Source: Pseudomonadota bacterium (lineage in GTDB: Bacteria; Myxococcota_A; Bradymonadia; UBA4248). Taken from it: a DNA stretch of 64,000 bases. Positions within the stretch are counted from its first letter, which is position 1. Every line of letters starts with the position of its first letter. Where the stretch lies: the NCBI GenBank assembly GCA_017441205.1, contig JAFRYG010000024.1, positions 6,046-70,045 on the forward strand, written 5' to 3'. This document shows, in pieces, positions 1,811-22,689 of the stretch. The notes below the pieces were generated by a model. It ran no database searches and had not been told where the DNA came from. It was given only the letters and a program-made list of their open reading frames with translations. The translations under genes and the position numbers were made by a program.

Positions 1811-3082
1811 ATGAATCAACATACGCGAACAATCCTATTATTCATTCTATGCATCATATTTCTGAGTGGCTGCTCAGATAATAAAACCGACGCCAATGGC
1901 CTGAATCAACAAGCCATGGTACATGTAGATCTCAATCCGCTGCCAGTTCCAAATGTTACCTCAGCTGAGGTACAGCCTGACCTCGGTTCACAGTTTAACG
2001 CACTCGCTTTCGAACTCGGTAAGCGAATGGAAACAGAACGCAACTTTGTCTACTCCCCATTTTCATTGCACAACCTGTTGACTGCATTGTCACTGGGGGC
2101 CAATGCAGACACCCAAAAACAACTGATGTCGACGCTTAAACTCCCTGAAACAGATACGCAATATCGCGCCTACAGTACCTGGCTGACTCATATTCTGGCA
2201 GATGGTTCCGGCGAGGATACTCAATTCCATCATGCATCGGCGATTTGGACTGATGCAAAGTTCAACTTAAATGAATCATTTGTTACAGCTCTCAAAGAGC
2301 AATTTCATACACAAAATCAGGTCGTCGACTTTGTTCATTATGCAGCGGATGTCGTCGATATCATTAACGAATGGTCAAACCTGAATACAAATGAAATGAT
2401 CAATAACATTGTTTCACAGAATGATATATCCCAAAACACATCCATGTTGCTTACCTGTGCAGACTCTTTTAATGGCAGATGGGCCACTCATTTCTATCCA
2501 GTCCAAATGACATTTTATAAACCAGGCAGTATAATACAATCGCTTGATGCGATTCACTATGTTCCCAGGACTGGCTATTATTACTCAAATGATTTACATT
2601 ACAGCGTAGCACAACTTTCTTTTCTTAACAACAAGTTTTCAATGCTATTCATTTTACCTCATGAAGTTGGCGGTCTGAACACACTCATATCAAAATTCAC
2701 CACACAGGAATTTGAAAAATTGATTGAAGGACTTGAGTTACAAAATATTAACATTACTATCCCTAAATTTAAAATTGATTACAAAGTCGCACATATTAAA
2801 AATCTATTTAATCAAATTGGATTATCCAACACCTTCAGTACCAGCTCCGATTATTCTTCCTTATCGGATAATTCGGTAATCATTGACCCTATTCTCACCA
2901 AAGCATCCATTGAAATTGGTCGGGAAGGAACCTTCTCCTCAGTTCCCATCGACATATGGCAAATTGAAGAAGGGGAACCCAGCAATCAAGTATCTTTTCT
3001 AGCAGATCATCCCTTTGCCTTTGCCATTATTCATAATCCAACCAAATCCATCCTGTTTTATGGACATTATTATGGTGAGTAG
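1811..3082 (+). CDS. Serpin-family lipoprotein (serpin 1) with a non-canonical hinge.
   Basis: Lipoprotein signal (LSGCS). Serpin N-terminal core 'FAFELGKRM...VYSPFSLHNLLTALSLGANADTQKQL' and the C-terminal serpin signature 'FLADHPFAFAIIHNPTKSILFYGHYY'. The hinge EIGREGTFSS has Arg at predicted P14. Confidence 0.8.
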   Translation: MNQHTRTILLFILCIIFLSGCSDNKTDANGLNQQAMVHVDLNPLPVPNVTSAEVQPDLGSQFNALAFELGKRMETERNFVYSPFSLHNLLTALSLGANADTQKQLMSTLKLPETDTQYRAYSTWLTHILADGSGEDTQFHHASAIWTDAKFNLNESFVTALKEQFHTQNQVVDFVHYAADVVDIINEWSNLNTNEMINNIVSQNDISQNTSMLLTCADSFNGRWATHFYPVQMTFYKPGSIIQSLDAIHYVPRTGYYYSNDLHYSVAQLSFLNNKFSMLFILPHEVGGLNTLISKFTTQEFEKLIEGLELQNINITIPKFKIDYKVAHIKNLFNQIGLSNTFSTSSDYSSLSDNSVIIDPILTKASIEIGREGTFSSVPIDIWQIEEGEPSNQVSFLADHPFAFAIIHNPTKSILFYGHYYGE

Positions 3083-3100
3083 AGGGAAGCTGCGATAATA

Positions 3101-3130
3101 GTCTTTGCCGCCGAATCCGGCGGCAAAACA
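3101..3130. terminator. Putative bidirectional hairpin terminator between the convergent serpin and transglutaminase-like genes.
   Basis: Inverted repeat TTTGCCGCCGAATCCGGCGGCAAA immediately after the serpin stop. Confidence 0.45.
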
Positions 3131-3144
3131 ATCCATTCCAGCTA

Positions 3145-4422
3145 TCACCGAATGAACTGACCATGCTGGATATAAATATATACATCGTTCGCGACATCGG
3201 AATACGCTGTGTACTCCTTGCGGTAGGAATAGCCCTTGAATTTGGTGGATAAAATATAATTGATATATCGCTCTTCGGCAGCTTCCTTGCTGATATTGTT
3301 AATCAGATTGAGCAATGTCTCGCCGACCACGAATGCATAAACATGAAGCGTCTCGCCCTTGAGCGCTTTCATCTCGCGCTTCATCAGCTGATTGAAATCC
3401 TCCATGCTGCGGACGACATTCGATCGCGTTACCGGCAAAATTACCCCCATCGCATCCAAAAATATATCGAGTCCAATCACCTCCATCGACGAATCCGTCG
3501 CATTGCATTCCGGCAGGCGCACGACATCCGTGCTGTAGCTGCTGGTGCGCCGGTAATTCATGGCTTCGAATTCAGCATCCGTGCGATTGAAGTATTTATA
3601 AATGGGAATCTGGATGGTTTTGTTCGACGCATTCCTGACGTCAAGCTTGTCGTTGGTCACATCGACATTATAATATTGACCGCGAATATTGATGATATTC
3701 CACGCATGCTCAGTCACCAGCTTTCCGGTCACGACCATCGTCGGAATACCAAGCCGGTTCATTAAAAACTGAAATGCTTTTGCATACCCCGTGCAAACGG
3801 CTTCGTGATTGACGATCGCACTGAATGCAGACTGCCGGGAATCGGCTTTCAGATTGTAATTCACTTTTGAAGCAATCTGGTTGTGTACATAGAGTTCTTT
3901 TTCTTCGACGGAATTCAGGGTTCTGGCAACCGAAAGAATCTTTTCGGCTTCGGCCTCGAACTGTGCGATCTTTTCATCCAGATTCCAGGCCAGTGACGTA
4001 TAATCGAAAGTCATCACAGCCTTATATGTACCATTGCCGTAGTCGGTAATGGTGCATTCGAATCCATCCGTAATCCAGAACAACTCAGGATGATCGTAAT
4101 AAACCCCATTAAAAATGCGCCGATAGACATTATCCTGGTAATTGCCTGTCAATTCGACCGATTTTTTTACCGCCAGGATGGCTTCATAAATGATTTTGTA
4201 CAGCTTCTTCTCTTCGGCATTGAGGCGATGATAGTAAGCCCAGAACTGTTCGTTCTGGCTGCTCGCTGACTGCATGTTCCGCGACTGATAATTCTGCATG
4301 ACCGATTTGCTCGGTGCGTGAGCACAGCCCGATGCGGCGATCATCCATCCGAATGACAGGCATAGAATAAGATAGGGTATTATTTTTTTCATATTATTTC
4401 GAGTCTCTCTCTTCGCCACCAT
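3145..4422 (-). CDS. Secreted transglutaminase-like domain protein (papain-like Cys-His-Asp fold).
   Basis: N-terminal signal/TM. Core motif 'HEAVCTGYAKAFQFLMNRLGIPTMVVTG...HAWNIINIRGQYYNVDVTND' matches the transglutaminase-like C..H..D arrangement. Confidence 0.7.
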   Translation of the reverse strand: MVAKRETRNNMKKIIPYLILCLSFGWMIAASGCAHAPSKSVMQNYQSRNMQSASSQNEQFWAYYHRLNAEEKKLYKIIYEAILAVKKSVELTGNYQDNVYRRIFNGVYYDHPELFWITDGFECTITDYGNGTYKAVMTFDYTSLAWNLDEKIAQFEAEAEKILSVARTLNSVEEKELYVHNQIASKVNYNLKADSRQSAFSAIVNHEAVCTGYAKAFQFLMNRLGIPTMVVTGKLVTEHAWNIINIRGQYYNVDVTNDKLDVRNASNKTIQIPIYKYFNRTDAEFEAMNYRRTSSYSTDVVRLPECNATDSSMEVIGLDIFLDAMGVILPVTRSNVVRSMEDFNQLMKREMKALKGETLHVYAFVVGETLLNLINNISKEAAEERYINYILSTKFKGYSYRKEYTAYSDVANDVYIYIQHGQFIR

Positions 4423-4510
4423 TCAACCTCACCTATCTCTCCATGGCCGTTGCCATCAATTATTATGTTTCGTCCATCCTTTTTTGCCCCATCCCCCTAA
4501 ATTCTCCTTC

Positions 4511-4783
4511 CCCCGTTGGGGCTGAGGAAAGAACATTTTGGAATACTTGAAACAATAAAGCCCGTAGGGCTTTTCGTTCAATAGCCCCTGGTTAAGGGCA
4601 TCGTCCTTACCAGGGGATCCGGATGATTACATAATGACATAACCCCGTAGGGGTTGTCGATAATACAACAAACGGATATGAATCATGGGTAACCCCTATG
4701 GGGTTGACAATGGAAATGCATCATTATTCCCCGGTAGCCGCTACGCGCCAACCGGGGGCTACTAAACGGTAAGTCCTACGGAC
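4511..4783. repeat. Array of at least six REP-like GC-rich palindromic units (CCCCGTTGGGG, GCCCGTAGGGC, CCCCTGGTAAGG..CCTTACCAGGGG, CCCCGTAGGGG, CCCCTATGGGG, GTCCTACGGAC).
   Basis: The palindromes can be read directly in the intergenic spacer between two minus-strand genes. Confidence 0.7.
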
Positions 4784-4923
4784 TTCTTCGCATTACCTCA
4801 TTTAATAGTTTTTTTCCCTTCCTCACCCATTGGAAAGTGGGAATTTGATTGGTGAGATACCGTTTTCCTGGAGTTTTACCCCAGACTGTACTCTTTTCGC
4901 CCTTACAGGGCTCATTCATAACA

Positions 4924-6228
4924 TTATTCGACAGGTACATACTCAAAGTCACGGATGACGGCCATGTGCTGCATCTTATGTGCCTCGGAATCATCCGCTT
5001 TCATCGGGGCAATATCGGCAAGTTCTCCGTGTTTTTTATAAACGCGTGAATCGACGACATGCCCTTTGGGATAAGATCTCTTCCCGACGACAGTCGGGGT
5101 TTCGAGGGCACAGAAATCCGGATTGCAAAGCAGATAATCGATCTGTTTATGCCGCGTTGCATTCGTCTTGACCATGCCGTCCTGATCGGCCGGCCAGTCC
5201 GCATATTTCTGTCCGACTTCGAACATTTGTCCGAAATGTCTGCGGATGGGTTCCCAGTCGGGCTGATTGAAATCGCCGCCGAGAATGACGTAATAATCTT
5301 TTTTATCCGCAGCGATTTTCTTTTCGATTTGTTTTTGCAGCGGCTCCATTTCGGCTTCGCTGTCCTGTGTGTACAGATGTACGCTCACGGCGAGCAGGTC
5401 GCGTTTGCCGGGAATATCGATGACGGCCCAGTTCCACTGGCGATCGGAGACTTTGTTGGACTTCCAGGAACCATGTTCGAGAATGGGATATTTCGATATT
5501 ATGCCGTTGGGAATACCGCCAGTACCGCGTACAAAAGTATATTCTTTCCCGAAGGTACTCGTTACAAAACTTTTGATACTATTCTTAAAGTAGTTGAATT
5601 CCTGAATCAGGACGATATCGGGTTTCATGGCTTTGAAGATGCGGATGCCTTCGCCATTGTCGTAGGATTGATCTTCGCCGGTCGTCGTATTTGCCGTCAT
5701 GATGCGCAGTTTGACTTTTTTGGAAGCCGGCGTGCCGTTGGCAGCCATATTGGCGACGAGTTCATTGATCGACGCGGGTTTGGTATCGGGAGCTTCGTCA
5801 TCCAGGCATTCGAACGTCAATTTTTGTGACGGAACGGATTTATATTTGGCATCTTTTGTATATTTGACGGCGATTTCGACCTGAAAGCTGCGATCGCCGT
5901 CGGGGACGTTGTCATCGACACCGGTCACCGTCACGACTTGAGGAACGTTCCAGTTTTCGCGCAAAAACGTGATTTCCTGGATATCGATCTTTCCTTCGGT
6001 CACATCGTTGGACGTCAGACTGAGAATGACTTTGGATTCGGGAGGCGCAGCCAGCGACACCGAGAATTTCTGGGCATCACCGAGCTCGGTCACCATGTAT
6101 TCGGCAGGCGGCGTAAATACGATTGCCGGCGAAGTTTTGGGAGGTTCGGCCTGAGCCTGATTGAAGCTCATGCCGGAAAGGAGAATGCCGAAGCCAAAGG
6201 CGAGTATTTTTATGGTGCGTTTCATCAT
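4924..6228 (-). CDS. Secreted endonuclease/exonuclease/phosphatase (EEP) family protein with an N-terminal beta-rich domain.
   Basis: Signal peptide MMKRTIKILAFGFGILLSG. EEP motifs 'KPDIVLIQEF' and 'ILGGDFN'. The listed ORF extends upstream to 6468 only by reading through the REP region, so the start was re-set to MMKRT. Confidence 0.7.
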   Translation of the reverse strand: MMKRTIKILAFGFGILLSGMSFNQAQAEPPKTSPAIVFTPPAEYMVTELGDAQKFSVSLAAPPESKVILSLTSNDVTEGKIDIQEITFLRENWNVPQVVTVTGVDDNVPDGDRSFQVEIAVKYTKDAKYKSVPSQKLTFECLDDEAPDTKPASINELVANMAANGTPASKKVKLRIMTANTTTGEDQSYDNGEGIRIFKAMKPDIVLIQEFNYFKNSIKSFVTSTFGKEYTFVRGTGGIPNGIISKYPILEHGSWKSNKVSDRQWNWAVIDIPGKRDLLAVSVHLYTQDSEAEMEPLQKQIEKKIAADKKDYYVILGGDFNQPDWEPIRRHFGQMFEVGQKYADWPADQDGMVKTNATRHKQIDYLLCNPDFCALETPTVVGKRSYPKGHVVDSRVYKKHGELADIAPMKADDSEAHKMQHMAVIRDFEYVPVE

Positions 6229-6257
6229 GAGTGGTGGGGGGGTAGAGGTTAGAGTCA

Positions 6258-6440
6258 GAGACGTTCCATGGAACGTCTGTATATAATCAGATCGCCCGCA
6301 GTGCGAATCATCAGCGCCCTGCAGGGGCGCCGGCACACAGTGTAATCCGGGGGAAAGCCAACATATATGGGCACGTATGCCGCAGGCATAGTGCCCATGT
6401 GCGGCCGTATGGAATAGGCCGCACGGTTTGTGCGCAGCGA
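6258..6440. repeat. Composite palindromic element: a GACGTTCCATGGAACGTC hairpin followed by GC-rich CGTATG-core palindromes (GGGCACGTATGCCGCAGGCATAGTGCCC; GCGGCCGTATGGAATAGGCCGCA).
   Basis: Direct reading. The same ACGTTCCATGGAACGT palindrome recurs at 36.8 kb. Confidence 0.65.
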
Positions 6441-6529
6441 CGCTGCGGCGGCGCAAGCCAAACCACAAATTACCCTAAAAAAAGGCGAAAAAAAAGAGCT
6501 CCGAAGAGCTCTTCTTTATAATGAATGCC

Positions 6530-8029
6530 TCAGGCAACCTGATCGATGGGTTTCTTTTTGGAAAAGAATCCGGAACGACCGAGGAAGGTTCCGAGCCCGA
6601 CATATAAATAACCTGAGCAGAACAGGCACATGAAAGGCACGGAGGCGTATGCGCCCATCATATAAGCATGGATGATGCCGACGACGAAATAAATGCCGAT
6701 CAGCGTTTCGACCCAGGGCTGCCAGTTGAGTTTGAAGCCGTATTTGACGTTTTTCCAATTGTCGCTGGCCCGAACAACGCCGTATTTGGGCGTGCGGACG
6801 AATCCGGTTTTGTAATTGAAGAGGGCCTCGAGGACGGCGCGGCAGTTGTTGACACTCAGACCGATGCCGAGGCTCATGACGACGGGCAGATACAGCAAGC
6901 GGCATCCCAGGGACTGTTTTCGGGCTTCTTTTTGGGCGAGCAAATAGAACATCATGACGGAGAAAGACGCGCAGATGAACATGAGCAAATCGACCCAAAG
7001 GCTAGTCATCCAGGAGTTGCGAACGCGGAACTCGACTGTCAGCGGCATCATGAGTGAGAGGATGACCATGAGAATATAGGAAACATTGCTCGTGAGGTGC
7101 ATCCAGGCTTCGAGTTTAATTTTGAACGGCAGGCGGCTTTTGAGGAGTCCGGGGAGGACTTTTTTGGCGACCTGTATGGAACCTTTTGCCCAACGGTGCT
7201 GCTGGGATTTGAAGGCGATCATTTCGACCGGAACTTCGGCAGGGGCAGTGGCTTCGTTCAGATAGATGAACTGCCATCCTTTGGACTGAGCGCGATAGGA
7301 GAGGTCGAGATCTTCTGTAATGGTATCGTGCTGCCATCCGCCGGCGTCAGCTATCGTCGATTTTCGCCAGATTCCTGCGGTTCCGTTAAAGTTGAAGAAA
7401 CGTCCGGAGCGGTTGCGTGCCGTATGTTCGATGACGAAATGGCCGTCGAGCAGAATGGACTGTGCCCGGGTCAGCGTGCTGAATTCGCGGTTGATATGTT
7501 CCCAGCGCACCTGAACCATACCGATTTTTTCGTTGGTGAAGAAATGAATCGTTCGTTCGAGGAAGTCTGGCTGCGGAATGAAGTCAGCGTCGAAGACGGC
7601 GACGAACTCGCCTGTAGCGGTTTTGAGTCCCTGTTCGAGAGCGCCGGCCTTGTAGCCGCTGCGATCATCGCGATGCAGATAGACGATATTGTAGCCTTCG
7701 GCGGCCTTGCGTTCGACGGCTTCGCGGGCTATTTGCTGCGATTCGTCCGTGGAATCATCGAGCACCTGGATCTGAAGTTTTTCGCGGGGGTAACGAATGC
7801 CTGTTACCGCATCGATCAGGCGCTCAATGACATATTTTTCGTTGAACATCGGCAGCTGAATCGTCACATTCGGGAGTGATTCGAACTGCCGTTCGGGATG
7901 TGGAATGTCCTTTTTGTGAATTCTGTAAAGAGTAGCCATGACGAACCGATGGACGCCATAGATACTCAGAATACAGAGCAAGATGAAGTACAGAAGGACA
8001 AAAAAGAAATCAAACGAAAGCATGATCAA
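6530..8029 (-). CDS. Processive family-2 glycosyltransferase (CesA/Csl-like beta-glycan synthase), polytopic membrane protein.
   Basis: D, DxD and QxxRW motifs (QQHRWAKG). The stretch 'VTIQLPMFNEKYVI...VLDDSTDE...AVFDADF' is typical of processive GT2 synthases. There are N- and C-terminal TM helices and no PilZ domain. Confidence 0.75.
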   Translation of the reverse strand: MIMLSFDFFFVLLYFILLCILSIYGVHRFVMATLYRIHKKDIPHPERQFESLPNVTIQLPMFNEKYVIERLIDAVTGIRYPREKLQIQVLDDSTDESQQIAREAVERKAAEGYNIVYLHRDDRSGYKAGALEQGLKTATGEFVAVFDADFIPQPDFLERTIHFFTNEKIGMVQVRWEHINREFSTLTRAQSILLDGHFVIEHTARNRSGRFFNFNGTAGIWRKSTIADAGGWQHDTITEDLDLSYRAQSKGWQFIYLNEATAPAEVPVEMIAFKSQQHRWAKGSIQVAKKVLPGLLKSRLPFKIKLEAWMHLTSNVSYILMVILSLMMPLTVEFRVRNSWMTSLWVDLLMFICASFSVMMFYLLAQKEARKQSLGCRLLYLPVVMSLGIGLSVNNCRAVLEALFNYKTGFVRTPKYGVVRASDNWKNVKYGFKLNWQPWVETLIGIYFVVGIIHAYMMGAYASVPFMCLFCSGYLYVGLGTFLGRSGFFSKKKPIDQVA

Positions 8030-8038
8030 GCCAAACTC

Positions 8039-8959
8039 TTACTTGCGGATTGTGCTTGTATCAAAGACATTCGCTGCCGAACCGATGCCGTATTTATCGG
8101 TGGGTTTAGCAGGCCCGCCAGACGGACGCCGAGTGCCGCTTGGTTTTTTGACAGGAGCTTTCTGTTTGACCTCATTGAAAGCCACTTCAACTGTGGAAGA
8201 CGTCGGGATATCGGTTCTCATCGTCAGAGATTTCGTAGGATATTCGGTCATCAACACGTACTGCATGGCATGTTTGTGGACGGAGTGAGCCGTATAGGCG
8301 AGGACTGCGATAACGACAGCCGCGGCTGCAGCCAGAATAATCATTGCATTTCTGGTCAGTTTGATTTTCTGCTTTTTGCTTGCTTCGGCCTGTTCTTCGG
8401 CAGCTTTATTAGCCTTCATAATGCGGATCTGCTCGGCCAATTCTTCGTTTGAGGACTGGAGCATCGCTGCTTCGGCTTCTTCGCGGGCTTTTTCGGCAGC
8501 TTTGCGTGCAGCTTCAGCTTCAGCTTCGGCGCGTTTTCTGGCTTCTTCTTCCTCGTCGATTTCGCCGGCTTCTTCTCTTCGTTTTTTCTCGATTGCTGCG
8601 AGCATCATCGTTCGGCGCTCGCCTTTTTCTTCGAGTTTTCGCTTTTCTTCCTCAAGTTTTTTCCGGGCTTCCTCAAGTTTTCTGGCCTCTTCAGCTTCCT
8701 GTTCTGCACGGAGCCGTTCTTCAGCTTCGCGGGCTCTGCGTTCTTTTTCGGCCTTTTCGGCTTCGATTTCAGCATTGGATTCGTCGAGCAGTCCGGACAA
8801 CAGATTTCCGACGCAATCCCCCGTCTGGCGCGCATGTTCTGTTACACCAGCGCGAGCTTTGCGGACGCGGGCTACTTCCTCGATTTCTTCACCGCCATCA
8901 ATTTCGGAAACTTCAGATAATTTGCTTAATGCCTGATTCAGAAGGAGATCGTCACTCAT
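8039..8959 (-). CDS. Single-pass membrane protein with a long E/K/R/A-rich coiled coil (low complexity).
   Basis: A ~150-aa charged heptad-like tract (EEARKRAEAEAEAARK...) is followed by a TM helix (AMIILAAAAAVVIAVLAY) and an S/T/P-rich tail. Plus-strand ORFs over the same DNA are S/A/R-rich junk. Confidence 0.4.
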   Translation of the reverse strand: MSDDLLLNQALSKLSEVSEIDGGEEIEEVARVRKARAGVTEHARQTGDCVGNLLSGLLDESNAEIEAEKAEKERRAREAEERLRAEQEAEEARKLEEARKKLEEEKRKLEEKGERRTMMLAAIEKKRREEAGEIDEEEEARKRAEAEAEAARKAAEKAREEAEAAMLQSSNEELAEQIRIMKANKAAEEQAEASKKQKIKLTRNAMIILAAAAAVVIAVLAYTAHSVHKHAMQYVLMTEYPTKSLTMRTDIPTSSTVEVAFNEVKQKAPVKKPSGTRRPSGGPAKPTDKYGIGSAANVFDTSTIRK

Positions 8960-9164
8960 GAGTTTTTCTCCATTGTATTGTTTTGTTTAAAAAAATGTGC
9001 CGCAGTCATTTTACCATCACCACGACATTCTTGTCCGACTACTACAGCAAATCAGGAGATGTGGCAAGCCAAAGGGTTTGACATGTGCTCAATGTCGGTT
9101 AAAGTATGAATATCCAATAGTCTTAAGCTATTGGTTTAACTGTTACCATATTTGGTGAGTATTT

Positions 9165-9644: not shown

Positions 9645-9706
9645 CCAGAATATTTTTTAGCCAATAATATCGATATTCAAGCTTTTGCGGACATCCACAG
9701 ACCCAA

Positions 9707-11261: not shown

Positions 11262-11561
11262 CACCTACCCCCTGTGCGGGAGTGCCCGCAACGCCCCGCA
11301 AACCTGAATCCCAACAATTTGCCTCAGTTCGCAAAAAGTCTGTTCACTTCACCTCCCAAATCTGATATTCATAAAAAGTATTCTCCGTCAAAACAAATAC
11401 ATGAACTCGCCATTACGCAATTATTTTGTTATGTTGCATAATGTATGGAAGTGAAGAAACGCAGTCTCTGCGCTTCATCGGACATAAACAGTCCATTTTT
11501 GGCGTTTGGTATTGTATCTGCGCCATGTTTGACGCATCACCTCAAGTACATCCGTATTCCC

Positions 11562-14500
11562 ATGTTACGAAAGCTATCCCTGTCCATTGCCCTGTTCCTC
11601 GCAATTTGTTCCCCAGCCCAGGCCGAAACGCCTGCATCGGGGCAAGCTCAAAAACTCGCCGCGCTCATGCAGCAAACGGCGATTGCGGATTCCCTGGGTG
11701 CAGAAGATGCCAATCTGAGTGAAATCGTTAAAATTCAGTCAGATGATCCCATACTTTCGCGCTATCTGGAATGGTCGAGACAATACTATTCACAAAAGTA
11801 TCAGGTTAGTCCCAAGGATTCGCCGCTGCCCGGAGCGGTAACCCAATTTTTCGTCTCATTTCCTTTTGCCAGCACCTCGATGTTTGATTTCGCACGTCCC
11901 TTTTCGCCCGAATCGGGATATGACACATCGAAATCACAGGAAGGTGCCATGTATCCGGCACTAAACTGGATGAAATACGAATCCACCGGAAACTACAGTG
12001 CTGTCCTTGCCCAGGAATGCATTGACAATTCCGGCTTTGTTACGATGTTCCTTGCGACTCGCATACGCATCGATGAGGCCAAGGGAATCGATGCATATCT
12101 CGAAATTCCATCATCCACGCCGGTCGTTGCCTGGATGAACGGCAAAAGAGTACTCGAAAACATCGAAAAAGGCCCGACACCTGCCCCAAAATACGGAGAA
12201 CGATGGCCAATACACCTCAATGACGGAGAAAACATCCTCACCATTAAGGTTGCAGCCCTCGAAACACAGCCGGCATTCTACGTTTTTCTGACGGATCGCA
12301 AGACGGGCAATCCGATTCCCTTCAAAATCGATTTGGAGCAACCCATCGTTTCAGGGCCGCTGGATGACTCGCGCCCGGAAACATCCGAACCGTCCGTTCT
12401 ATTATCCCTGTATAAGGATCAAAGCAATTCACCTGCCCTGCGATCCTATATCGCACGCGAAATCTTTTCCGAAGAAGAAGCCGATCGCCTCGTCAACGAT
12501 CTGCTGTTTACCGATGTTGAAGCGACATCCAATCTGCCGCCCGACGATTTGGAACTGGCAATTCTGGCACTCAACAACCATCCCAAAAGTCTGCAGTTTA
12601 TGGTCCGGGCAATGAAAAAACATGCCAATGATCCGCGCATGCAGCTTCTCTATGCCCGCCAGATGATTCTGGCATCCGAAGATCAGGGGGATACCGGCGT
12701 CCGCTTTGTCGATGAATGGCCGCAAATCCACCAAAACCTCGTTTCGATGACCGCACCCGTCGTCAATGGCATCTCCTACGAACCTCTCAGACGCAAACTC
12801 ATTGCTCTGTCGGAACTCAATGCCCAGCAGACGCTGACTGCCATCCGCGAAATTTCAAAAGATCCGCAAAAATGCCCCGAATGCGAACGATATCTGATTC
12901 CAAATATGATGGGATCATTGACGGATCGTTACCTGGTTGCAGAACATCTCGACTATCTCGAAAAACAGCTCGAGCATGACAGGAATTCATCGGCGCTGCT
13001 CGTCGATATCATGGACGGAAAACTCCGTCGTGCCGTGCTGCGCAATGATGAGTCGGAATTGGCCAAAACACTCGCCGAAATCCAGCAGTCGAGCGAATCA
13101 TTTTTCAAAATTCATCCTTACGACGACTATTTCTGGTCATTCTGGCTCAACGTGGTTTCTGAATATGGACTGGATTCCGAGCGCGTTAAAGCCTCACCGG
13201 AACTTGCGCAAAAGCTCTCTGATGCCGGTTTTTCGGCAGATGCAGACACATGGTTCATGCTTTACCTGTCCCAGAGAGTCAATGATCCCAAACGATGGCA
13301 AAGATATGCAGAGCATTGCCTGAAAACGGGACAAACCGCCGAAGTCATATCTGCCTACGAGATGGCCTCACGCCTTCAGCCCCAGGATACATCACTTTCG
13401 GAACGTTCCGAAATGATGAAAAAGATCGCAAACCATCCGGAAACAGAAAAAGCTGCAGCCAGTTCGGAACCGTCGTTCGAAACGCCGTATATCATCCGCG
13501 AAATTCCTGATAACCGGGATGCCAATGCAACAGGCCTGGTTTCACTGCTCGACAATCGGGTCGTCAAAATCCACGAAAATGGCCTTTCTTCCACGTACAA
13601 CCAAATCGCATTTCAAATTCTCGACGAACAGGGGCTCAAGGCTGTCCGTATGATGCCGATCAACTACTCGCCGACGGACGAAAAGCTGGAAATCATCTCG
13701 GTCACAACGATGAAAAAAGACGGTTCTGTACGTCGTCTGTACGAAACGACCGAGTACAATACTGCCGACGAATCCGTAAAAATGTACTACGATCAGCGGC
13801 AAGTCGTCATTGAAGTTCCTGGACTCGCCGTTGGCGATCGCATCGAATACCAATTCAGGCGAACGCAGATTCAGCGAGCAGCGAGCAGTGTTTCATTTTT
13901 CAGCGACATCTATCAGCTTCAATCCTGGTTCAATCGCCAATGGTCCAGATACACGATCATTGCTCCGGAATCGACGAATGTCACTCTGCTTCGCCACACG
14001 CCGGCGGGGAATCCGACTCAGGTCGGCACGAGCAAAAAGGAAGGCGGCAATATTGTCATTACCTACGAAGAAAAGGATACCCCAAGACTTCTTGCCGAAC
14101 CCCAGATGCCTGGTGCCACAGAAGTCATGCCATTCCTGCTCGTATCGACATTCAGGACCTGGCAGGAACTGACTGACTGGTTTATCGATCTGGCCTCCCC
14201 GCAATGGAAAGCGGATGACGCGATTCGCGCCAAAGTTCAGGAGCTGACCAAAGGCATCGATGATCCCTTCGAAAAGCTCAAACGAATTCATAGTTTTGTC
14301 GTCAAGTCGACGCGATACGTTGCGCTCGAATTCGGCATTCATGGGCATAAACCCTATCCGGCAGCTCAGATTTTTGAACGCCGGTTCGGCGACTGCAAGG
14401 ACAAAGCCAGTCTTCTCAAGGTCATGCTCAGGGAAGCCGGCATTGAGTCAGAATTTGTTTTGGCCAGAACGCGCCAGAATGGCGATGTTACCCTCGATCT

Positions 14501-15323
14501 TCCCAATCCCTATCTGTTTGATCATGCCATACTGTACGTACCGCAGTTTGATCTGTTCCTGGATGGAACGGCGGAATTCAGCGGTACAAGGGAACTTCCT
14601 GCGATGGATCAGGATGCACAGGTACTCGTTCTGAGTGACGCATCCACCTACAAACTGCAAAAGATACCGGTTTCCAAACCATCCGACAATCACGTCCAGC
14701 AAACCTGGGAATTTGATCTGACCCAGGGACAGGATGTCTCATTTGCCTACCATGCAGACTATAGCGGTTACATGGCCCCGAGTTATCGTGAGCGCTACCA
14801 GATTGATTCGCTGCAGCGCGAGCGTCTCGAATCAGAAATTGCCTATAATATCCACGGTTCACAGCTTAAATCCTTCGAATTTTCAGATCTTTCCGATCTC
14901 GAAAAAGACGTTTCACTCAACTATACGGCAACGACGACGCTGAGTGACATCGTCAAGTCGGACGGCAGTCTGTGGCTGGTTACCCCCATGGTCATGCCGA
15001 GCCAGATGGCCAAGAGCTTTGCCTCATCCGCCAAGCGCCGAACACCCATTGTTCAGGCCGTCCCGTTTGTCATCGATAAAACGATTACGCTCATCCTGCC
15101 GCCCGGAGCCAAAGTGACATTGCCGGAAGCAGTCAGTGAATCCGGAAAGTTTGGTTCCTACACGATCACCTCGTCCCTTGCGGATAACCGTCTGACGACC
15201 CAGATTCAGCTTACGCTGACCCAGGTCAAGATTCAGCCCGACGACTATCCTGGGTACCTGGACTTTTTACAAAGCTATGATCGCCGTCTGAACACTCAGT
15301 TCCAAATCAATCTGTCCAAATAA
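11562..15323 (+). CDS. Large secreted protein (~1,250 aa) with a C-proximal transglutaminase-like catalytic domain (DUF3857/transglutaminase-type architecture).
   Basis: Signal peptide MLRKLSLSIALFLAICSPAQA. The catalytic triad context 'RRFGDCKDKASLLKVMLREAGIESEFVLART...LFDHAILYVPQFDLFLDGT' (Cys, His, Asp) can be read directly. The DUF name is from memory of domain architectures. Confidence 0.6.
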   Translation: MLRKLSLSIALFLAICSPAQAETPASGQAQKLAALMQQTAIADSLGAEDANLSEIVKIQSDDPILSRYLEWSRQYYSQKYQVSPKDSPLPGAVTQFFVSFPFASTSMFDFARPFSPESGYDTSKSQEGAMYPALNWMKYESTGNYSAVLAQECIDNSGFVTMFLATRIRIDEAKGIDAYLEIPSSTPVVAWMNGKRVLENIEKGPTPAPKYGERWPIHLNDGENILTIKVAALETQPAFYVFLTDRKTGNPIPFKIDLEQPIVSGPLDDSRPETSEPSVLLSLYKDQSNSPALRSYIAREIFSEEEADRLVNDLLFTDVEATSNLPPDDLELAILALNNHPKSLQFMVRAMKKHANDPRMQLLYARQMILASEDQGDTGVRFVDEWPQIHQNLVSMTAPVVNGISYEPLRRKLIALSELNAQQTLTAIREISKDPQKCPECERYLIPNMMGSLTDRYLVAEHLDYLEKQLEHDRNSSALLVDIMDGKLRRAVLRNDESELAKTLAEIQQSSESFFKIHPYDDYFWSFWLNVVSEYGLDSERVKASPELAQKLSDAGFSADADTWFMLYLSQRVNDPKRWQRYAEHCLKTGQTAEVISAYEMASRLQPQDTSLSERSEMMKKIANHPETEKAAASSEPSFETPYIIREIPDNRDANATGLVSLLDNRVVKIHENGLSSTYNQIAFQILDEQGLKAVRMMPINYSPTDEKLEIISVTTMKKDGSVRRLYETTEYNTADESVKMYYDQRQVVIEVPGLAVGDRIEYQFRRTQIQRAASSVSFFSDIYQLQSWFNRQWSRYTIIAPESTNVTLLRHTPAGNPTQVGTSKKEGGNIVITYEEKDTPRLLAEPQMPGATEVMPFLLVSTFRTWQELTDWFIDLASPQWKADDAIRAKVQELTKGIDDPFEKLKRIHSFVVKSTRYVALEFGIHGHKPYPAAQIFERRFGDCKDKASLLKVMLREAGIESEFVLARTRQNGDVTLDLPNPYLFDHAILYVPQFDLFLDGTAEFSGTRELPAMDQDAQVLVLSDASTYKLQKIPVSKPSDNHVQQTWEFDLTQGQDVSFAYHADYSGYMAPSYRERYQIDSLQRERLESEIAYNIHGSQLKSFEFSDLSDLEKDVSLNYTATTTLSDIVKSDGSLWLVTPMVMPSQMAKSFASSAKRRTPIVQAVPFVIDKTITLILPPGAKVTLPEAVSESGKFGSYTITSSLADNRLTTQIQLTLTQVKIQPDDYPGYLDFLQSYDRRLNTQFQINLSK

Positions 15324-15356
15324 ATTCTGTTCCCAACTCCAACATAAGCTGAAGAT

Positions 15357-18300
15357 ATGCGCAAAATAGCCTTTGTATTGGCCCTTTCCCTTACTGTTCT
15401 GTCATACGGCTGTGCGACGACATCCCAGTCACGCCAGGGCACATGGTCTGCATGGCCCTCGCAAGCCTCGATGTCCGATACGCTGAAATCCTCGATTGCC
15501 GACATGAAATCGGGCGATCTGCAGGCTGCCGATGCCAGATTGACGCCTGACGTCAGATCCGCCGATCCTGCAGCCAGTTACCTGCATGCAGAGATTACTG
15601 CCCTGCGCGGACAGACGGCTGCTGCCGCAGATTTGATGACGGATTTTATCGCACAAAACCCACAGAATCCGCTCGTTTCTGCAGCGCTCGTCAGGCTTCT
15701 CTCCCTGAGCAATACCTCCAGTTCTCCGCTCAACTGGGAAAAGGTATCCCAGCTGAAAGTCAACGATCCCTATGCCGCTGCGCGCCTCGTCATTCTTCAA
15801 AACCGGGCACTCAGGGAAACCCATCATCCCGACCTGAAGCATCCGACAGCCCTGCCCCTGGTAAAATGGCAATGGGTTGGACCATTTACCCCTTATATTT
15901 ACACGGGATTCGAATCTGAACAGCCATTTGACGGCGATCCCATCCTCGGCGAAAGCTACGAATTGGACGGCAAACGACTCGAACGCTTTCAATACCCTGC
16001 GGACAGTTCAACGCCCATGGCATCCTCCATGTCGGGCGTTTATGCCGCAGAAACCCGCATTCAGGTCGATCGTGAAATGCCGGTTCAAATCATCGTTCAG
16101 GGCGCGCAGCTCTATACGATATTTGTCGACGGCAATCCCGTACTCTCGCGCGATTTCTCGCAATTCGGCAAGGAATCCGTACTTGCTTCGCGCTTCGTTC
16201 TTCCCCAGGGAGAACATATCATTCGACTGCGTCTTGGATTGAATGCAGCCACCGCTTCCAATCACCACGTTGCCCTTTGGATTGCGCCGTCGGATTTCAC
16301 CAGCAAAACAGACGATCTCAGTGCCCTCAGGGAACTTGACGATTTGTCCGGCAAATTGCCGGATAAAACAGAAATCAAAAAACTCGAACGCATCGACCTG
16401 ACGCATATTCTCGGCAGCACGACAGAACCAGCTGCTGATGAAACCATGCGTTCGTGGATCGGTGCATCCATGGCAGTTCTGACCGGAAGACCCCAAATCG
16501 CCGAAACCCTGATTCAGGGAGCTCTTCAGAAAGATCCCGACGATATCATTGCCCAGTATTGGAAAGCCATGCGATATCGGGCAGACGCCGATCTTGATCC
16601 TTCGCTCAGATCAGAAAATACCATCCATATTCTCAAGGATATTGCAAAAAAAGCGCCGCAGCTCGCAGCGGTTCAGCAGCTGCTCATTTCGGAATTTCTC
16701 AAACAGCAGCAGCCCAAACAGGCACTCGAAATCTGGGAAAAACATAAGAATACCCTGCCCGATACTGCAGAAATGAATTCCCTGCTGAGCGAGCTGTCCA
16801 AAACACTCGAATGGTATGACATTTCGAAGGAATATGCCCTCAAAGCCATGCAGAAGGCACCGAATTCCTGTTCGCTCGCAGTCAATGCATTTAACATCCA
16901 GACGCAGCGCAATGCCTATACATCGTTCGAGCAGCTGTCTCCGCGAATCCAGTCCTGTCCATCCATCGTTCGCGCCTATTCAAAGCTGGAAGGCAATGAT
17001 GCCGCTGAAAAATCGCGCTGGTTCAATGCGCTCGATCAGCTCGCCAAAGACAATCCCAACGACAGCTCAATCCGCCTGGAAGCCATTCTGGCCAAATCTC
17101 CGACGGCCCCAGAAAGTGCTGCGCGCGAATTTCTCGAACTCCTCGATGCCGTGTCAAAAGGCTATTATCCCAATATTTCGACAGAATCGGCGCTGGTATT
17201 GATAGATAATCTGCGCGCCGCCGGACACGAAAAGGAAGCCGAAAACGTTTTGGCAAAGATTCTCGAGCTCTATCCTGTCGCAGAAGTTTTCAGAAATATG
17301 GAATGGCAGCACCACCAGGATCGTCCTTTGAGTGAACTGCGCATTGACGGCATGAATACCATCAAAGAATATCTCGCACAGAACCGAGACGATGCCGGCA
17401 GCTCCGTCATGCTCCTGGATTATGCAGCCACCCGGATTTTCCCCACGGGTGCAAAACTGGGACTGACGCATCAGATTTCGCGCGTTCTGAGCAAAGAAGG
17501 CAAAAATGAGGTCGGCGAAATCTATCTTCCCTCCCACGCATCAGTTCTCAGAATCCGTACGATAAAAGATGGAACATTCGAAATCGTCGAACCGGAAACC
17601 ATCGATTTTAAAGATTCTGTCACTGCCCCCAACCTCGAAGTCGGCGACTATGTTGAAGTCGAATATCTGACATTCGAACCAGCGGCTTCGCGCTACATTC
17701 CCCGAGTTGCAACCGATACATTTTTCTATGGTTCCAACCAGAGCCCGCTCGTCCGCTCGGAGTATGTGTTTGAATACCCCAAAGACTGGCATGTCGAGAT
17801 CGTGGAATCCGGCCCCCGGAATCAGATTCAGCAATCCTGTGCACCGGTTGGCGAATTCATGCGTTGCTCGGCAAAACGAGAAAACATCCCGGTATTCATT
17901 CCTGAACCGCGTGCGGCCTCTCCTATCGATCTGATACCCAATATCCAGGTTTATTATCATTACGACTGGGATTACATCCGCCAGGGACTCCATGAATCCA
18001 TTACACGCCAAACGCGCGTAACCCCATACGTTCAGAGATTTTACGATAAACTTGCCGTTCCCGAAGGCGATTCGGTCTGGGAACATGCGAGAGCCATCTA
18101 CGATCAAGTCGTTGAAAGCATCGACGAAAGTGAAACGATGCGCACCAATGATGACGAAACCGCGACGAATTCCATCACGCGTGGAACCGGTTCGCGATTC
18201 ATTACCCTGAAATCGCTCTACGATATTGCCGACATTCCGAATTATTTTGCGCTCGTACACTCCATCCTGGCACCGGAAAACAGCGAACAGCTGCCTTCCA

Positions 18301-19130
18301 TGTACGAAAATGCCTATGTCACCCTGCTCGTCGTCGAAACCGAAAAGGGACCGGCATATCTTCAGCCGACAGAAGATTATATCCCCTTTGACTACTTATC
18401 GGCAGATCTTCAGGGACAGACGGTCATTCCCGTCGATCCCGCCTACGAAAGATTCATTTCGCGCCAGGAGAATCCGGAACTGCAGAGAGCAACGATCGCT
18501 ATTCAATACGAAATTTCTGAAGACGGCACAGCCAAAGCAAAATCGACTGAAGTCATGAGAGGCTCCCGGGCTCTCGTCATGCGCAACTTTCTCAATACGG
18601 TCAAAAACGATAATGACAAAGCCCAGCAGGTCGTTCAGAACAGCCTTGCCAATAACTATGGCCGCATCGAACTGACGCGCCTGGAGCACGAACAGCTCGA
18701 CGACAAGAATAAGCCCCTGACACTGCACTACGATTTCGATATCGCGAGTTTTGCCGCAGCATCAGATGGTAAGCTGGATATTATTTCGCGCATATTCGCA
18801 TATAATCTCGTCAATCAGTTTGCCCAGCTTCCGCCTTCCCAAAGGAAATATCCTGTACTCATCGATTCCGACATGCTTTCGGAACGAACGCTCACGTTCC
18901 ATGCTCCTGCCGGTTATACCTGGGATACGACGACACTGCAGGACATCAGTCTGGAGACAAAATTCGGCAAATTCAGCCGTCATACCCAACTCAACGCCGA
19001 GACCCTCGAAGTCAAAGAATCCATACAAATCCGTCCTCAGCGCATCCAGCTTGATCAGTATGCGGAATTCAGGGAATTCTGCCTCGCGGTGGATGAAGCC
19101 CAGAGAACTGTGATTTCGGCCAAAAAGTAG
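15357..19130 (+). CDS. Paralog of the preceding large protein: a lipoprotein of similar size and architecture whose equivalent triad positions appear substituted (likely inactive).
   Basis: Lipoprotein signal (LSYGCATTS). The segment 'RGTGSRFITLKSLYDIADIPNYFALVHS...YENAYVTLLV...YLQPT' aligns by eye to the active-site region of 11562..15323 with C>S, H>N and D>Q. Confidence 0.5.
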   Translation: MRKIAFVLALSLTVLSYGCATTSQSRQGTWSAWPSQASMSDTLKSSIADMKSGDLQAADARLTPDVRSADPAASYLHAEITALRGQTAAAADLMTDFIAQNPQNPLVSAALVRLLSLSNTSSSPLNWEKVSQLKVNDPYAAARLVILQNRALRETHHPDLKHPTALPLVKWQWVGPFTPYIYTGFESEQPFDGDPILGESYELDGKRLERFQYPADSSTPMASSMSGVYAAETRIQVDREMPVQIIVQGAQLYTIFVDGNPVLSRDFSQFGKESVLASRFVLPQGEHIIRLRLGLNAATASNHHVALWIAPSDFTSKTDDLSALRELDDLSGKLPDKTEIKKLERIDLTHILGSTTEPAADETMRSWIGASMAVLTGRPQIAETLIQGALQKDPDDIIAQYWKAMRYRADADLDPSLRSENTIHILKDIAKKAPQLAAVQQLLISEFLKQQQPKQALEIWEKHKNTLPDTAEMNSLLSELSKTLEWYDISKEYALKAMQKAPNSCSLAVNAFNIQTQRNAYTSFEQLSPRIQSCPSIVRAYSKLEGNDAAEKSRWFNALDQLAKDNPNDSSIRLEAILAKSPTAPESAAREFLELLDAVSKGYYPNISTESALVLIDNLRAAGHEKEAENVLAKILELYPVAEVFRNMEWQHHQDRPLSELRIDGMNTIKEYLAQNRDDAGSSVMLLDYAATRIFPTGAKLGLTHQISRVLSKEGKNEVGEIYLPSHASVLRIRTIKDGTFEIVEPETIDFKDSVTAPNLEVGDYVEVEYLTFEPAASRYIPRVATDTFFYGSNQSPLVRSEYVFEYPKDWHVEIVESGPRNQIQQSCAPVGEFMRCSAKRENIPVFIPEPRAASPIDLIPNIQVYYHYDWDYIRQGLHESITRQTRVTPYVQRFYDKLAVPEGDSVWEHARAIYDQVVESIDESETMRTNDDETATNSITRGTGSRFITLKSLYDIADIPNYFALVHSILAPENSEQLPSMYENAYVTLLVVETEKGPAYLQPTEDYIPFDYLSADLQGQTVIPVDPAYERFISRQENPELQRATIAIQYEISEDGTAKAKSTEVMRGSRALVMRNFLNTVKNDNDKAQQVVQNSLANNYGRIELTRLEHEQLDDKNKPLTLHYDFDIASFAAASDGKLDIISRIFAYNLVNQFAQLPPSQRKYPVLIDSDMLSERTLTFHAPAGYTWDTTTLQDISLETKFGKFSRHTQLNAETLEVKESIQIRPQRIQLDQYAEFREFCLAVDEAQRTVISAKK

Positions 19131-19167
19131 TTTTGCTTTTTTCCGGGAACACCTCACCAATAAAAAA

Positions 19168-19268
19168 GAGGCGCCGCGTATGGGGAAGGCTTGAAAAGCC
19201 ATTTCCCATAGCGGCGCCCAGGGCGAGCCGTATGGGCGTCTGCCATTTGCAGCGCCCATAGGCGAGTG
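19168..19268. repeat. REP-like GC-rich palindromes (GGCGCCGCGTATGGG...CCCATAGCGGCGCC; GAGCCGTATGGGCGTCTGCC...GCGCCCATAGGCGAG).
   Basis: Direct reading. Lies between convergent genes. Confidence 0.6.
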
Positions 19269-19273
19269 CCAGA

Positions 19274-20602
19274 TTAAATTTTATTGACGCGCCCCATGAA
19301 GAGAGCGGTATTGGTATCGGTTTCCATCAGGAAGAACAAGAAGGGGTGATCGACGACAATTTCGATCGGATTCGAGGGAGGCGGAAGCATTGCCTTTGTC
19401 CGCATAACCACTGCGGTTGCGGCAGCAGCTTCGGCACCTTTTTCGTTCACATCGATGTAAGCTTTTTGAAGCACCTCGGAAATCATGAGTTCGTCGGAAT
19501 CAGACATGCGCGAGAAATCTGCATCGTGTGTAAAAGCCGTCGTCATGCCGAGAGAATTCAGCATCTGCCTGAGGGAAAGGCTCGTTTCGATGCGGAATTT
19601 CGGCATTTTCAGCTTCACCATGCGACTCGACATTGCTTCGCGCATTTTGCGAATCTCTTCTGCGGTCAAAGTCGCGGTAACCTTATTCAGGGCTTCGTCG
19701 ACATCGACGCCATCGGCAACTTTCGGCAGGATGACAAACAGCGAATAACCGCCGATGAATGACAAATCCACTGCGATAAAAGCTTCATTATCCAGATAGA
19801 CGCGATGCTTTTTGTTATGCTGCATCATATCGACCTGGATGACGCCGTCGTGCGTTTTAAAATCGGCCTTTTGCGTTGCCGATTCACTGAACGAATCAAA
19901 CCATGGGGCCTTAAAATAGATGGCATTGGTCAAAACGACGCGCGTCAGTGAGCTGAGAATACCCGGAGGCAGAATATCCTGGATTTTGCCCTGAGTGGAT
20001 TCTGCAACGTCAGCATTGATGGTTTTGCGGGCATTTTCCGTATCGCCGATGAAATCGAGCTGACGCGGCTTAACGTCGTAGGCTGCAGATACACGCTCCA
20101 TATAATCAGGCAAAAGATTGCTCGTTTTTTCAACCCAGATGCGATTGTCTATCGTGACCGTAACATTTTCGTCAGAGGCAGACTCAGCCATTGCCTTCTC
20201 GACATCTTTACCCATTTCGCTCAAATTCTTTGCATCCGGCAGCCCAAGAGCCTTTCTCATCTCGGAAATTGTGGTTCCGCATGCACCTTCGTAGACCATT
20301 CCCAAAGCTCTCTGTGCCGAGAAAGGAGAAACGACAGCCGAACCTTCCTGCATATTTCTGAGCATATTCAGACCGAAATTGTTATTGGCATCGCTCCATG
20401 CAGCCATTTCGATTGCCGCATCAGAACTCACGACACACTCTTTTGGGGCAGCTTTGGGAGCCGGAACGTTGGCATTATCGGAATTTTCCGCAGTCTGGTT
20501 CTCGGAAACAGCGGTTTCGACGTTTTCGGGAGTTTGCTTTTTGGAGCATCCCACGAGACACATTGCGGCAATGATACCTGTAATTATCAGAGATTTTTTC
20601 AT
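19274..20602 (-). CDS. Serpin-family lipoprotein (serpin 2) with a canonical inhibitory hinge.
   Basis: Start re-set to MKKSLIITGIIAAMCLVGCSKK (lipobox). The core 'VVSPFSAQRALGMVYEGACGTTISEM' and the hinge 'EKGAEAAAATAVVMRTKAML' match the inhibitory E-x-G-T/A-E-A-A-A-A-T consensus. C-terminal 'VDHPFLFFLMETDTNTALFMGRV'. Confidence 0.8.
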   Translation of the reverse strand: MKKSLIITGIIAAMCLVGCSKKQTPENVETAVSENQTAENSDNANVPAPKAAPKECVVSSDAAIEMAAWSDANNNFGLNMLRNMQEGSAVVSPFSAQRALGMVYEGACGTTISEMRKALGLPDAKNLSEMGKDVEKAMAESASDENVTVTIDNRIWVEKTSNLLPDYMERVSAAYDVKPRQLDFIGDTENARKTINADVAESTQGKIQDILPPGILSSLTRVVLTNAIYFKAPWFDSFSESATQKADFKTHDGVIQVDMMQHNKKHRVYLDNEAFIAVDLSFIGGYSLFVILPKVADGVDVDEALNKVTATLTAEEIRKMREAMSSRMVKLKMPKFRIETSLSLRQMLNSLGMTTAFTHDADFSRMSDSDELMISEVLQKAYIDVNEKGAEAAAATAVVMRTKAMLPPPSNPIEIVVDHPFLFFLMETDTNTALFMGRVNKI

Positions 20603-22686: not shown

Positions 22687-22689
22687 TGA

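Follow-up and report, generated by a model that had tools for sequence, protein, structure and literature searches.

The 64,000-nucleotide stretch analysed here (contig JAFRYG010000024.1 of assembly GCA_017441205.1, positions 6,046 to 70,045, referred to below as the window) comes from an uncultured bacterium of the Bradymonadia and encodes two serpins, each of which directly adjoins a gene for a transglutaminase-like (TG-like) protein. Serpin 2 appears to be a tethered inhibitor of exogenous proteases, serpin 1 a gene in decay, and the adjacency to the TG-like genes an accident of gene order; taken as a whole we consider this account probable, although well short of certain. It bears out only part of the original prediction, which proposed that the serpins and the TG-like proteins form cognate inhibitor-enzyme pairs, or else that the serpins protect surface proteins against host proteases.

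Both genes are genuine members of the serpin superfamily (PF00079). Serpin 1 (positions 1811-3082, + strand, 423 amino acids) matches the Pfam Serpin profile with an E-value of 1.3e-70, and serpin 2 (positions 19274-20602, - strand, 442 amino acids when translation begins at an internal ATG, the start also used in the original prediction) with an E-value of 1.1e-99. The match covers ~365 of the 370 profile positions in both, each matches dozens of solved serpins in the PDB, and AlphaFold gives a confident serpin fold for both, with a mean predicted local distance difference test score (pLDDT) of 82 for serpin 2 and 83.5 for serpin 1. As each also carries a lipobox, the prediction of two lipoprotein serpins is borne out, and the two genes already carry the annotation 'serpin family protein' in GenBank (MBQ9816144.1 and MBQ9816154.1). 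The two proteins are ~23% identical and belong to different families, here called A (serpin 2) and B (serpin 1), which rules out recent paralogy. The accompanying remark that serpins are uncommon in bacteria overstates their rarity, as a HMMER scan returned 27,310 serpin cluster representatives from all kingdoms at E<=0.001, and the GTDB species genomes contain at least 547 confirmed stretches that encode a serpin.

Serpin 2 begins with a signal peptide and lipobox, LVG-C19 (positions 20546-20602, - strand). The sequence around it (...CLVGC19) is a classical L-V-G-C lipobox that fails the strict PROSITE pattern by virtue of a Cys at -4, and serpin 2 is predicted to be lipid-anchored via Cys19, which is invariant in the 27 sequences of its clade; Lys21 is conserved in at least 90% of them. 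The lipobox is followed by an Ala/Glu/Thr-rich tether that ends at about residue 53-65, measures 39-73 amino acids across the clade, and is modelled by AlphaFold at pLDDT <50 (residues 1-53). About two-thirds of the residues of the model have a pLDDT of at least 90, and Foldseek matches it to native serpins, among them MENT, PAI-2, antithrombin, serpin B1 and miropin, with an E-value of 1e-34 and a template-modelling (TM) score of up to 0.92 (target-normalised).

The hinge and reactive-centre loop of serpin 2 (positions 19379-19444, - strand) run from E387 (P17) to M-R-T-K403 (P1), followed by A404 (P1'). As the signature of an inhibitory hinge we took Glu at P17, Gly at P15, Thr, Ser or Ala at P14, and small residues (Ala, Gly or Ser) at P12-P9. 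Serpin 2 reads E-K-G-A-E-A-A-A-A-T-A and so agrees with this consensus, and across the 27-member alignment of the clade (A1) the hinge is conserved as E-x-G-(A/T/V)-E-A-A-A-A-(T/S)-A, with C19, E387, G389, E391, A392, A393, A394, A395 and A397 invariant. P1, located by moving 17 residues on from the hinge Glu, is Lys403; this column holds Lys or Arg in 26 of the 27 sequences, and P1' is small in nearly all. Residues 393-405 have low pLDDT in the model, as expected of an exposed loop. By these hinge rules we infer that serpin 2 works as an inhibitor and that its specificity is of the trypsin type (Arg/Lys).

Database searches retrieve 26 orthologues of serpin 2 at 43-54% identity; the matches that follow are generic serpins, all below 40%. 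A GTDB scan with the clade alignment gave, among the matches listed, generic serpins only, at no more than 41% identity. Between two strains the gene shows 4 synonymous and 0 non-synonymous differences, and the same serpin 2 is present in several ENA metagenome assemblies. Judged by this distribution, serpin 2 is a core gene of one uncultured lineage.

Several known inhibitors resemble serpin 2 in part. Miropin, a surface-exposed serpin whose loop contains a Val-Lys-Thr site, is active against trypsin, plasmin, elastase, papain and the gingipain Kgp (bioRxiv 10.1101/2025.09.05.674453). It is abundant on the cell surface of Tannerella forsythia, an animal-associated anaerobe, and shares with serpin 2 a Lys site in the loop. 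The miropin structure (PDB 5NCS) matches the serpin 2 model with a TM score of 0.84 (target-normalised), yet the two proteins come from different phyla and are only 27% identical. They also differ in that the broad specificity of the multi-site miropin loop has been shown by experiment, whereas serpin 2 is known from sequence and model, and in that serpin 2, unlike miropin, has a long low-complexity tether. Miropin is not known to be encoded beside a cognate protease. By analogy, serpin 2 looks like a tethered trypsin-type suicide inhibitor of the miropin kind, and membrane-anchored prokaryotic serpins are a recognised category (PMC8233489).

Serpins from gut commensals, namely the siropins of Eubacterium siraeum and the serpin of Bifidobacterium longum, act on digestive and inflammatory serine proteases of the host (PMC5127057, PMC8201313). 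Serpin 2 differs from them in its Lys/Arg P1 and its lipobox. To our knowledge these serpins mainly inhibit elastase-type enzymes, and we know of no report that they are lipid-anchored. The same job that we propose for serpin 2 is performed in Enterobacteria by the periplasmic inhibitor ecotin, which guards the envelope of gut bacteria from exogenous trypsin-fold proteases (PMC9904509), but ecotin is unrelated in fold, acts reversibly and is not a lipoprotein.

In the mechanism that we propose, serpin 2 would be exported and lipidated at Cys19, and the probably flexible tether of ~50 residues would hold it off the membrane, with the loop exposing a Lys at P1 (Arg in many orthologues). An Arg/Lys-specific protease would cleave the P1-P1' bond after Lys403 and be trapped as a covalent acyl-enzyme upon insertion of the loop into sheet A. 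The target would likely be a trypsin-like serine protease, or possibly a gingipain-like cysteine protease. No protease gene was found as a conserved neighbour of serpin 2 in the neighbourhoods compared, and known serpins of gut and oral bacteria act on foreign proteases, so exogenous targets seem most likely; these would most probably be proteases met in an animal gut, whether those of the host pancreas or those of other microbes, rather than the neighbouring TG-like proteins. That serpin 2 is inhibitory, which class of protease it acts on, where in the cell it resides and that its targets stem from the gut are our interpretation of the features described above. The proposal that the serpins protect against host proteases fits serpin 2, with its invariant hinge, its Lys/Arg P1 and its lipobox and tether, but not serpin 1, the hinge of which is degenerate.

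The main rival explanation, which we regard as unlikely, is self-protection, i.e. that serpin 2 restrains secreted or periplasmic Arg/Lys-specific serine proteases of the bacterium itself, for example as part of a protein-degrading or predatory lifestyle. Guarding the cell's own envelope would suit an inhibitor held by a lipid anchor and a tether, and the window encodes many exported TPR proteins, Ser/Thr kinases, FHA domains and M16 peptidases, which are features of a Myxococcota-type genome. The best GTDB serpin match, among the matches listed, likewise comes from a 'Myxococcales' metagenome-assembled genome, although at only 37% identity. Such a role is harder to reconcile with the neighbourhoods of serpin 2 and its orthologues, as in all five that were compared no serine protease gene lies beside the serpin, and with the foreign targets of the characterised gut and oral bacterial serpins.

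Serpin 1 presents a different picture. Its signal peptide and lipobox, FLSG-C21 (positions 1811-1873, + strand), pass the PROSITE-type rule, and the G-C pair is invariant in family B, but its hinge and reactive-centre loop (positions 2921-2986, + strand) are non-canonical, with Glu387 as the nominal P1. The original prediction had called for the loops of both serpins to be modelled, and the canonical hinge anticipated of an inhibitor is seen in serpin 2 and not in serpin 1, the loop being of low pLDDT in both. The serpin 1 hinge reads R-E-G-T-F-S-S-V-P-I-D, that is, Arg at P17, Phe at P13, Ser at P12, Val at P10, Pro at P9, Ile at P8 and Asp at P7, and deviates at P17, P13, P10, P9, P8 and P7 from residues that are fixed or almost fixed in 123 comparison serpins. 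Among these, Glu at P17, Glu at P13, Ala at P12 and Ala at P10 are invariant, and Ala occupies P11 in 122 and P9 in 121. A Pro within the strand-forming hinge segment is known to convert inhibitors into substrates, as in antithrombin Cambridge I. Because the hinge departs from the consensus, serpin 1 should not be filed as an inhibitor. AlphaFold still gives it a serpin fold, the best of five models having a pLDDT of 83.5 and the other four 73-77, and loop residues 376-390 are of low pLDDT.

A word-indexed search with serpin 1 found nothing beyond 28% identity except variants from the same species, and compared over the full length its nearest relatives show 28-33% identity. From the HMMER scan a small family of lipoprotein serpins could be assembled (family B; P0179, from a contig of only 1.4 kb, P0192, P0199, P0218 and P0234), whose members show 26-33% identity to serpin 1 and 40-46% to P0179, and which share with serpin 1 an N-terminal segment and the C-terminal motif ADHPFAF...LF.GQY.G. 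These relatives all keep the hinge E-x-G-T-K-A-A-A-A-T and the shutter motifs LVNA and HKA, in place of which serpin 1 has LTCA and TKA. Many of the top HMMER matches of serpin 1 (P0176-P0250) are proteins of 740-1050 amino acids with two serpin domains in tandem. A JGI metagenome scan with the family-B serpins returned mostly generic serpins, and only one locus (L123) was informative. Its serpin is the closest relative of serpin 1, with 40% identity over the C-terminal 265 residues and a canonical hinge, and is also without its N-terminal half. In that locus (L123, positions 5856-10786) the serpin adjoins a 1255-amino-acid lipoprotein with a Cys-rich N-terminus of CTCNEDTGEWENC repeats and no Pfam match.

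Composition and strain variation set serpin 1 further apart. Its GC content of 0.397 is the lowest of 16 genes measured, against 0.45-0.54 for its neighbours, and between strains its non-synonymous divergence (dN) is 0.039, against 0-0.011 for the neighbours (a difference of about 4-10 times), with a synonymous divergence (dS) of 0.149 and a dN/dS of 0.26. The 90% cluster of serpin 1 holds five 205-amino-acid versions without an N-terminus (P0131-P0135), each from a different assembly. On an 8.3-kb contig of GCA_016648615.1 such a 205-amino-acid remnant begins 14 bp after ThiF and has lost its signal peptide, its first 218 residues and the DNA upstream, while a gene in the position of TG1, the TG-like neighbour of serpin 1, is retained; relative to positions 1272-3082 of the window, the remnant implies a deletion of ~1.2 kb. 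Serpin 1 is thus probably a non-inhibitory or decaying accessory gene. The low GC content also prompted us to consider a horizontally acquired serpin 1-TG1 cassette, and this was rejected on the GC content of 0.46 and the low divergence of TG1. Since TG1 is unlike serpin 1 in both measures, and since the gene in its position is kept beside serpin remnants, the two genes do not form one unit.

The three TG-like proteins had been described as sharing the papain-like fold; of these, TG1 and TG2a match Transglut_core and carry the catalytic triad, and for TG2b a Pfam scan gave no Transglut_core match. TG1 (positions 3145-4392, - strand, 415 amino acids) matches Transglut_core with an E-value of 1.5e-9, PDB entry 9crn with an E-value of 1.2e-13 and, over part of its length, the model for the MAG6410 family of TG-related lipoproteins from Mycoplasma with an E-value of 2.9e-27; a triad of Cys200, His229 and Asp244 was assigned by inspection within the Pfam match. 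It had been called secreted, and it is predicted to be exported, but both it and TG2b pass the PROSITE-type lipobox rule, so that TG1 is probably a lipoprotein.

TG2a (positions 11562-15323, + strand, 1253 amino acids, secreted) contains TPRs and matches DUF3857 (E-value 1.2e-21) and Transglut_core (E-value 9e-11). Its Cys945, His988 and Asp1001 lie in the motifs GDCKDKA, F(D/N/G)HAI and LDGTAEF, and the triad is invariant in 11 family members. It has 21 orthologues at 43-62% identity, and the next relatives fall to 23%, which marks a lineage-restricted family; a PDB sequence search with TG2a gave no match. TG2b (positions 15357-19130, + strand, 1257 amino acids, predicted lipoprotein) shows only sub-threshold DUF3857 and DUF3858 matches. 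The two were proposed to be paralogues, and homology over the C-terminal half is supported (hhalign probability 98.4%, E-value 5e-15, 605 columns), but they are only ~17% identical, and each of the four TG2b orthologues has a deletion of the Cys segment and other residues in place of the His and Asp. From these motifs TG1 and TG2a are plausible enzymes and TG2b is best described as a pseudoenzyme, a catalytically dead paralogue of TG2a.

The TG2a-TG2b tandem is kept wherever it could be checked (L001, L008, L093, L094 and the P0172 locus, the last on a contig of GCA_016648615.1); it occupies positions 11562-19130 of the window, 10001-17639 of L093, 10001-17774 of L094 and 16971-21356 of L008. 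With the DUF3857/transglutaminase-core/DUF3858 proteins (PF12969, PF01841, PF12970) TG2a shares DUF3857, Transglut_core and the triad, and TG2b the weak DUF3857 and DUF3858 matches. TG2a and TG2b differ from these proteins in their length of ~1250 amino acids, with a lineage-specific N-terminal half of ~600 amino acids that includes the TPRs, and in always occurring as a tandem in which one copy is active and the other inactive. By its gene order and motifs the pair is an independent, conserved active-plus-dead module of the envelope, specific to this lineage. L094 carries a TG1-like transglutaminase-core gene (positions 22166-23401, 27% identical to TG1) at a distance of 8 kb on the downstream side of the TG pair, and TG1 of the window is found 7 kb upstream of its pair; TG-like genes tend to cluster in this lineage.

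The linkage of serpins to TG-like genes was then compared across the loci of seven relatives, as the original prediction had recommended. In the sequence available, direct adjacency is found in none of the seven; in two the TG pair lies 5.6 or 9.6 kb from the serpin, across three to four called genes, and in five there is no linkage. In L008 (serpin 47% identical) the TG pair is 5.6 kb off, separated from the serpin by an open reading frame of 99 amino acids, Dus, an aldo-keto reductase and a ferredoxin-domain protein. In L092 (48%) it is 9.6 kb off, on the opposite side of the serpin compared with L008, and the intervening genes are those for the ferredoxin-domain protein and the aldo-keto reductase together with a kinase-like block. 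No TG gene lies within 10 kb of the serpin 2 orthologue in L007 (53%) or L010 (46%), where the neighbours are glutamate dehydrogenase with NifS/NifU in one and a metallo-beta-lactamase-fold protein with YjbR in the other. Conversely, no serpin lies within 10 kb of the TG pair in L094 or the P0172 locus, nor within 10 kb upstream of it in L093, the contig of which ends ~0.3 kb downstream, and the TG1-like gene of L094 has no adjoining serpin. Among 160 diverse prokaryotic serpin loci (1.85 Mb, including loci reused from the GTDB scan) none contains a relative of TG1, TG2a or TG2b in a search of limited sensitivity to distant TG families. The weak TG candidates that a home-made TG-core hidden Markov model and phmmer picked up in these loci proved to be DeoC, an amino-acid kinase, DnaG and DUF2112. 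Nor did the literature search reveal a report that connects serpins of prokaryotes to transglutaminase-like genes.

The one recurrent neighbour of serpin 2 is the kinase-like block (positions 20908-25834, + strand), which is divergent from serpin 2 and encodes a degenerate kinase-like membrane protein of 592 amino acids, a protein of 331 amino acids and a CarboxypepD_reg protein of 713 amino acids. It is found again in L008 (positions 4722-9633) and L092 (positions 4765-9629) and is absent from the L007 and L010 neighbourhoods. The arrangement in the window looks like the outcome of loss or relocation of the Dus/aldo-keto reductase/ferredoxin segment within a loosely syntenic region. On these comparisons the adjacency of serpin and TG-like genes is a species-specific gene order and does not reflect a conserved inhibitor-enzyme pairing.

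Within the window itself, both serpin-TG arrangements are convergent, as had been noted from the open reading frames, with a gap of 62 bp between serpin 1 and TG1 and of 143 bp between TG2b and serpin 2. The first gap (positions 3083-3144) contains a GC-rich hairpin, UUUGCCGCCG-AAUC-CGGCGGCAAA, for which the fold of 3070-3160 has an energy of -33.6 kcal/mol (z -4.2) and which may serve as a terminator. The second (positions 19131-19273) contains two long GC-rich hairpins, with an energy of -73.1 kcal/mol (z -6.1) for the fold of 19128-19276. U-tracts are absent from the hairpins in both gaps; even so, these are consistent with separate transcription units, and the convergent orientation together with the strong hairpins argues that the serpin and TG genes are not co-transcribed.

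It is against this background that the proposal of cognate pairs must be weighed, in which each serpin would inhibit the adjoining TG-like cysteine enzyme across protease classes and thereby shield the cell envelope. Both serpins do directly adjoin TG-like genes, TG1 and TG2a retain Cys-His-Asp, all partners are predicted to be exported, the TG pair lies less than 10 kb from serpin 2 in L008 and L092, and serpins are able to inhibit papain-fold enzymes, miropin acting on papain, Kgp and Tpr. A cognate pair would, however, be expected to lie on the same strand and be co-transcribed, and to stay linked in relatives, and neither is seen here: the genes converge on intervening hairpins, the adjacency never recurs in relatives, and in four of their loci (L007, L010, L094 and the P0172 locus) serpin and TG genes are not linked. 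In addition, the actual neighbour of serpin 2 is TG2b, which has no triad, the hinge of serpin 1 is degenerate and the gene is lost in some strains while that in the TG1 position stays, and none of the 160 other serpin loci has a TG-like neighbour. Known bacterial inhibitor-protease pairs are same-strand neighbours, as in the potempin/KLIKK pairs of T. forsythia, in which genes for lipoprotein inhibitors lie directly upstream of those for exported peptidases and co-production has been reported (PMC9890683). This is the model that the cognate-pair idea resembles, but the serpin and TG genes are convergent, their linkage is not conserved and one of the 'enzymes' is dead. The staphostatin/staphopain system is a similar inhibitor-peptidase pair. 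We therefore hold cognate pairing to be very improbable. There is also only a slim chance that, in this one species, local rearrangements placed each serpin beside an exported TG-like cysteine enzyme as a consequence of its recruitment to that enzyme, be it as a cross-class inhibitor or as a cross-linking substrate; if it were true, it would be the first serpin/transglutaminase-fold partnership known in bacteria. The weakest idea, in which the TG-like enzymes cross-link Gln/Lys-rich N-terminal serpin tethers to envelope proteins much as factor XIIIa cross-links alpha-2-antiplasmin, draws on the richness of the serpin 2 tether in Gln, Glu and Lys and on the adjacency of the genes in this genome, but is scarcely credible given that the linkage is not conserved and that hydrolase activity is what is generally predicted for the bacterial TG-like members of this superfamily.

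Several points weigh against our preferred account, in which serpin 2 is a tethered inhibitor of exogenous proteases, serpin 1 is decaying and the TG adjacency is accidental. L008 and L092 keep the TG pair within 5.6-9.6 kb of serpin 2, a loose association in part of the lineage, and two independent serpin-TG adjacencies within 19 kb would be unlikely to arise by chance if TG-like genes are rare here. The serpins of L007 and L010 are assumed to be orthologues of serpin 2 and may instead be paralogues. The primed side of the serpin 2 loop is ~6 residues longer than that of alpha-1-antitrypsin, so that the P1 obtained by counting from the hinge could be off. Serpin 2 may be either surface-exposed or periplasmic. 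Finally, the habitat is deduced only from the sample labels TONG22 and XIEF21, which may refer to ruminant gastrointestinal studies; a literature search for the sample and assembly accessions returned no match.

Between the outer genes, the window encodes an exported endonuclease/phosphatase-family protein, a family-2 glycosyltransferase, a coiled-coil protein, a TPR lipoprotein and small lipoproteins, and Pfam scans tied none of the genes separating serpin 1/TG1 from TG2a-serpin 2 to proteolysis. The remainder is ordinary chromosome, with folD, infC, xseA, an MgsA-type ATPase, M16 peptidases, Ser/Thr kinases and FHA proteins. In the kinase-like block, the 713-amino-acid protein has CarboxypepD_reg/Ig-like domains and a sub-threshold match to the MG3 domain of bacterial alpha-2-macroglobulin, and the kinase-like gene contains a perfect 30-bp tandem duplication (positions 22030-22089) that encodes EVDNSSAEAA twice. 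The two palindromic GC-rich hairpins between TG2b and serpin 2 (positions 19170-19270) are built on UAUGGG...CCCAUA, and a similar palindrome of the TATGCC..GGCATA type occurs at positions 6371-6394 and 25887-25910 (I1, 92% complementary); the palindromic hairpins of the window may be elements resembling repetitive extragenic palindromes or terminators without U-tracts. A scan for promoter and terminator consensus sequences gave counts equal to chance, an Rfam scan of the window gave no match, and a repeat search gave nothing that bears on the serpin-TG finding.

These findings leave current knowledge intact, and serpin 2 would add to the known membrane-anchored serpins from another lineage than that of miropin. 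A striking adjacency, even when seen twice in one window, may still be an accident of local gene order. The TG2a/TG2b tandem of an active and a dead copy would be an uncharacterised envelope module specific to this lineage, and serpin 1 appears to be a serpin partway through losing its inhibitory machinery, with hinge and shutter motifs gone and the gene variable between strains and truncated in some. Together with its 26 orthologues, serpin 2 makes up a clean, conserved clade of predicted lipid-anchored bacterial serpins with Lys or Arg at P1, which may be a source of miropin-like inhibitors of trypsin- and gingipain-type proteases outside the Bacteroidota. A more modest novelty would be that an uncultured and seemingly animal-associated lineage maintains two separate families of lipid-anchored serpins, one of them with a fixed Lys/Arg at P1.

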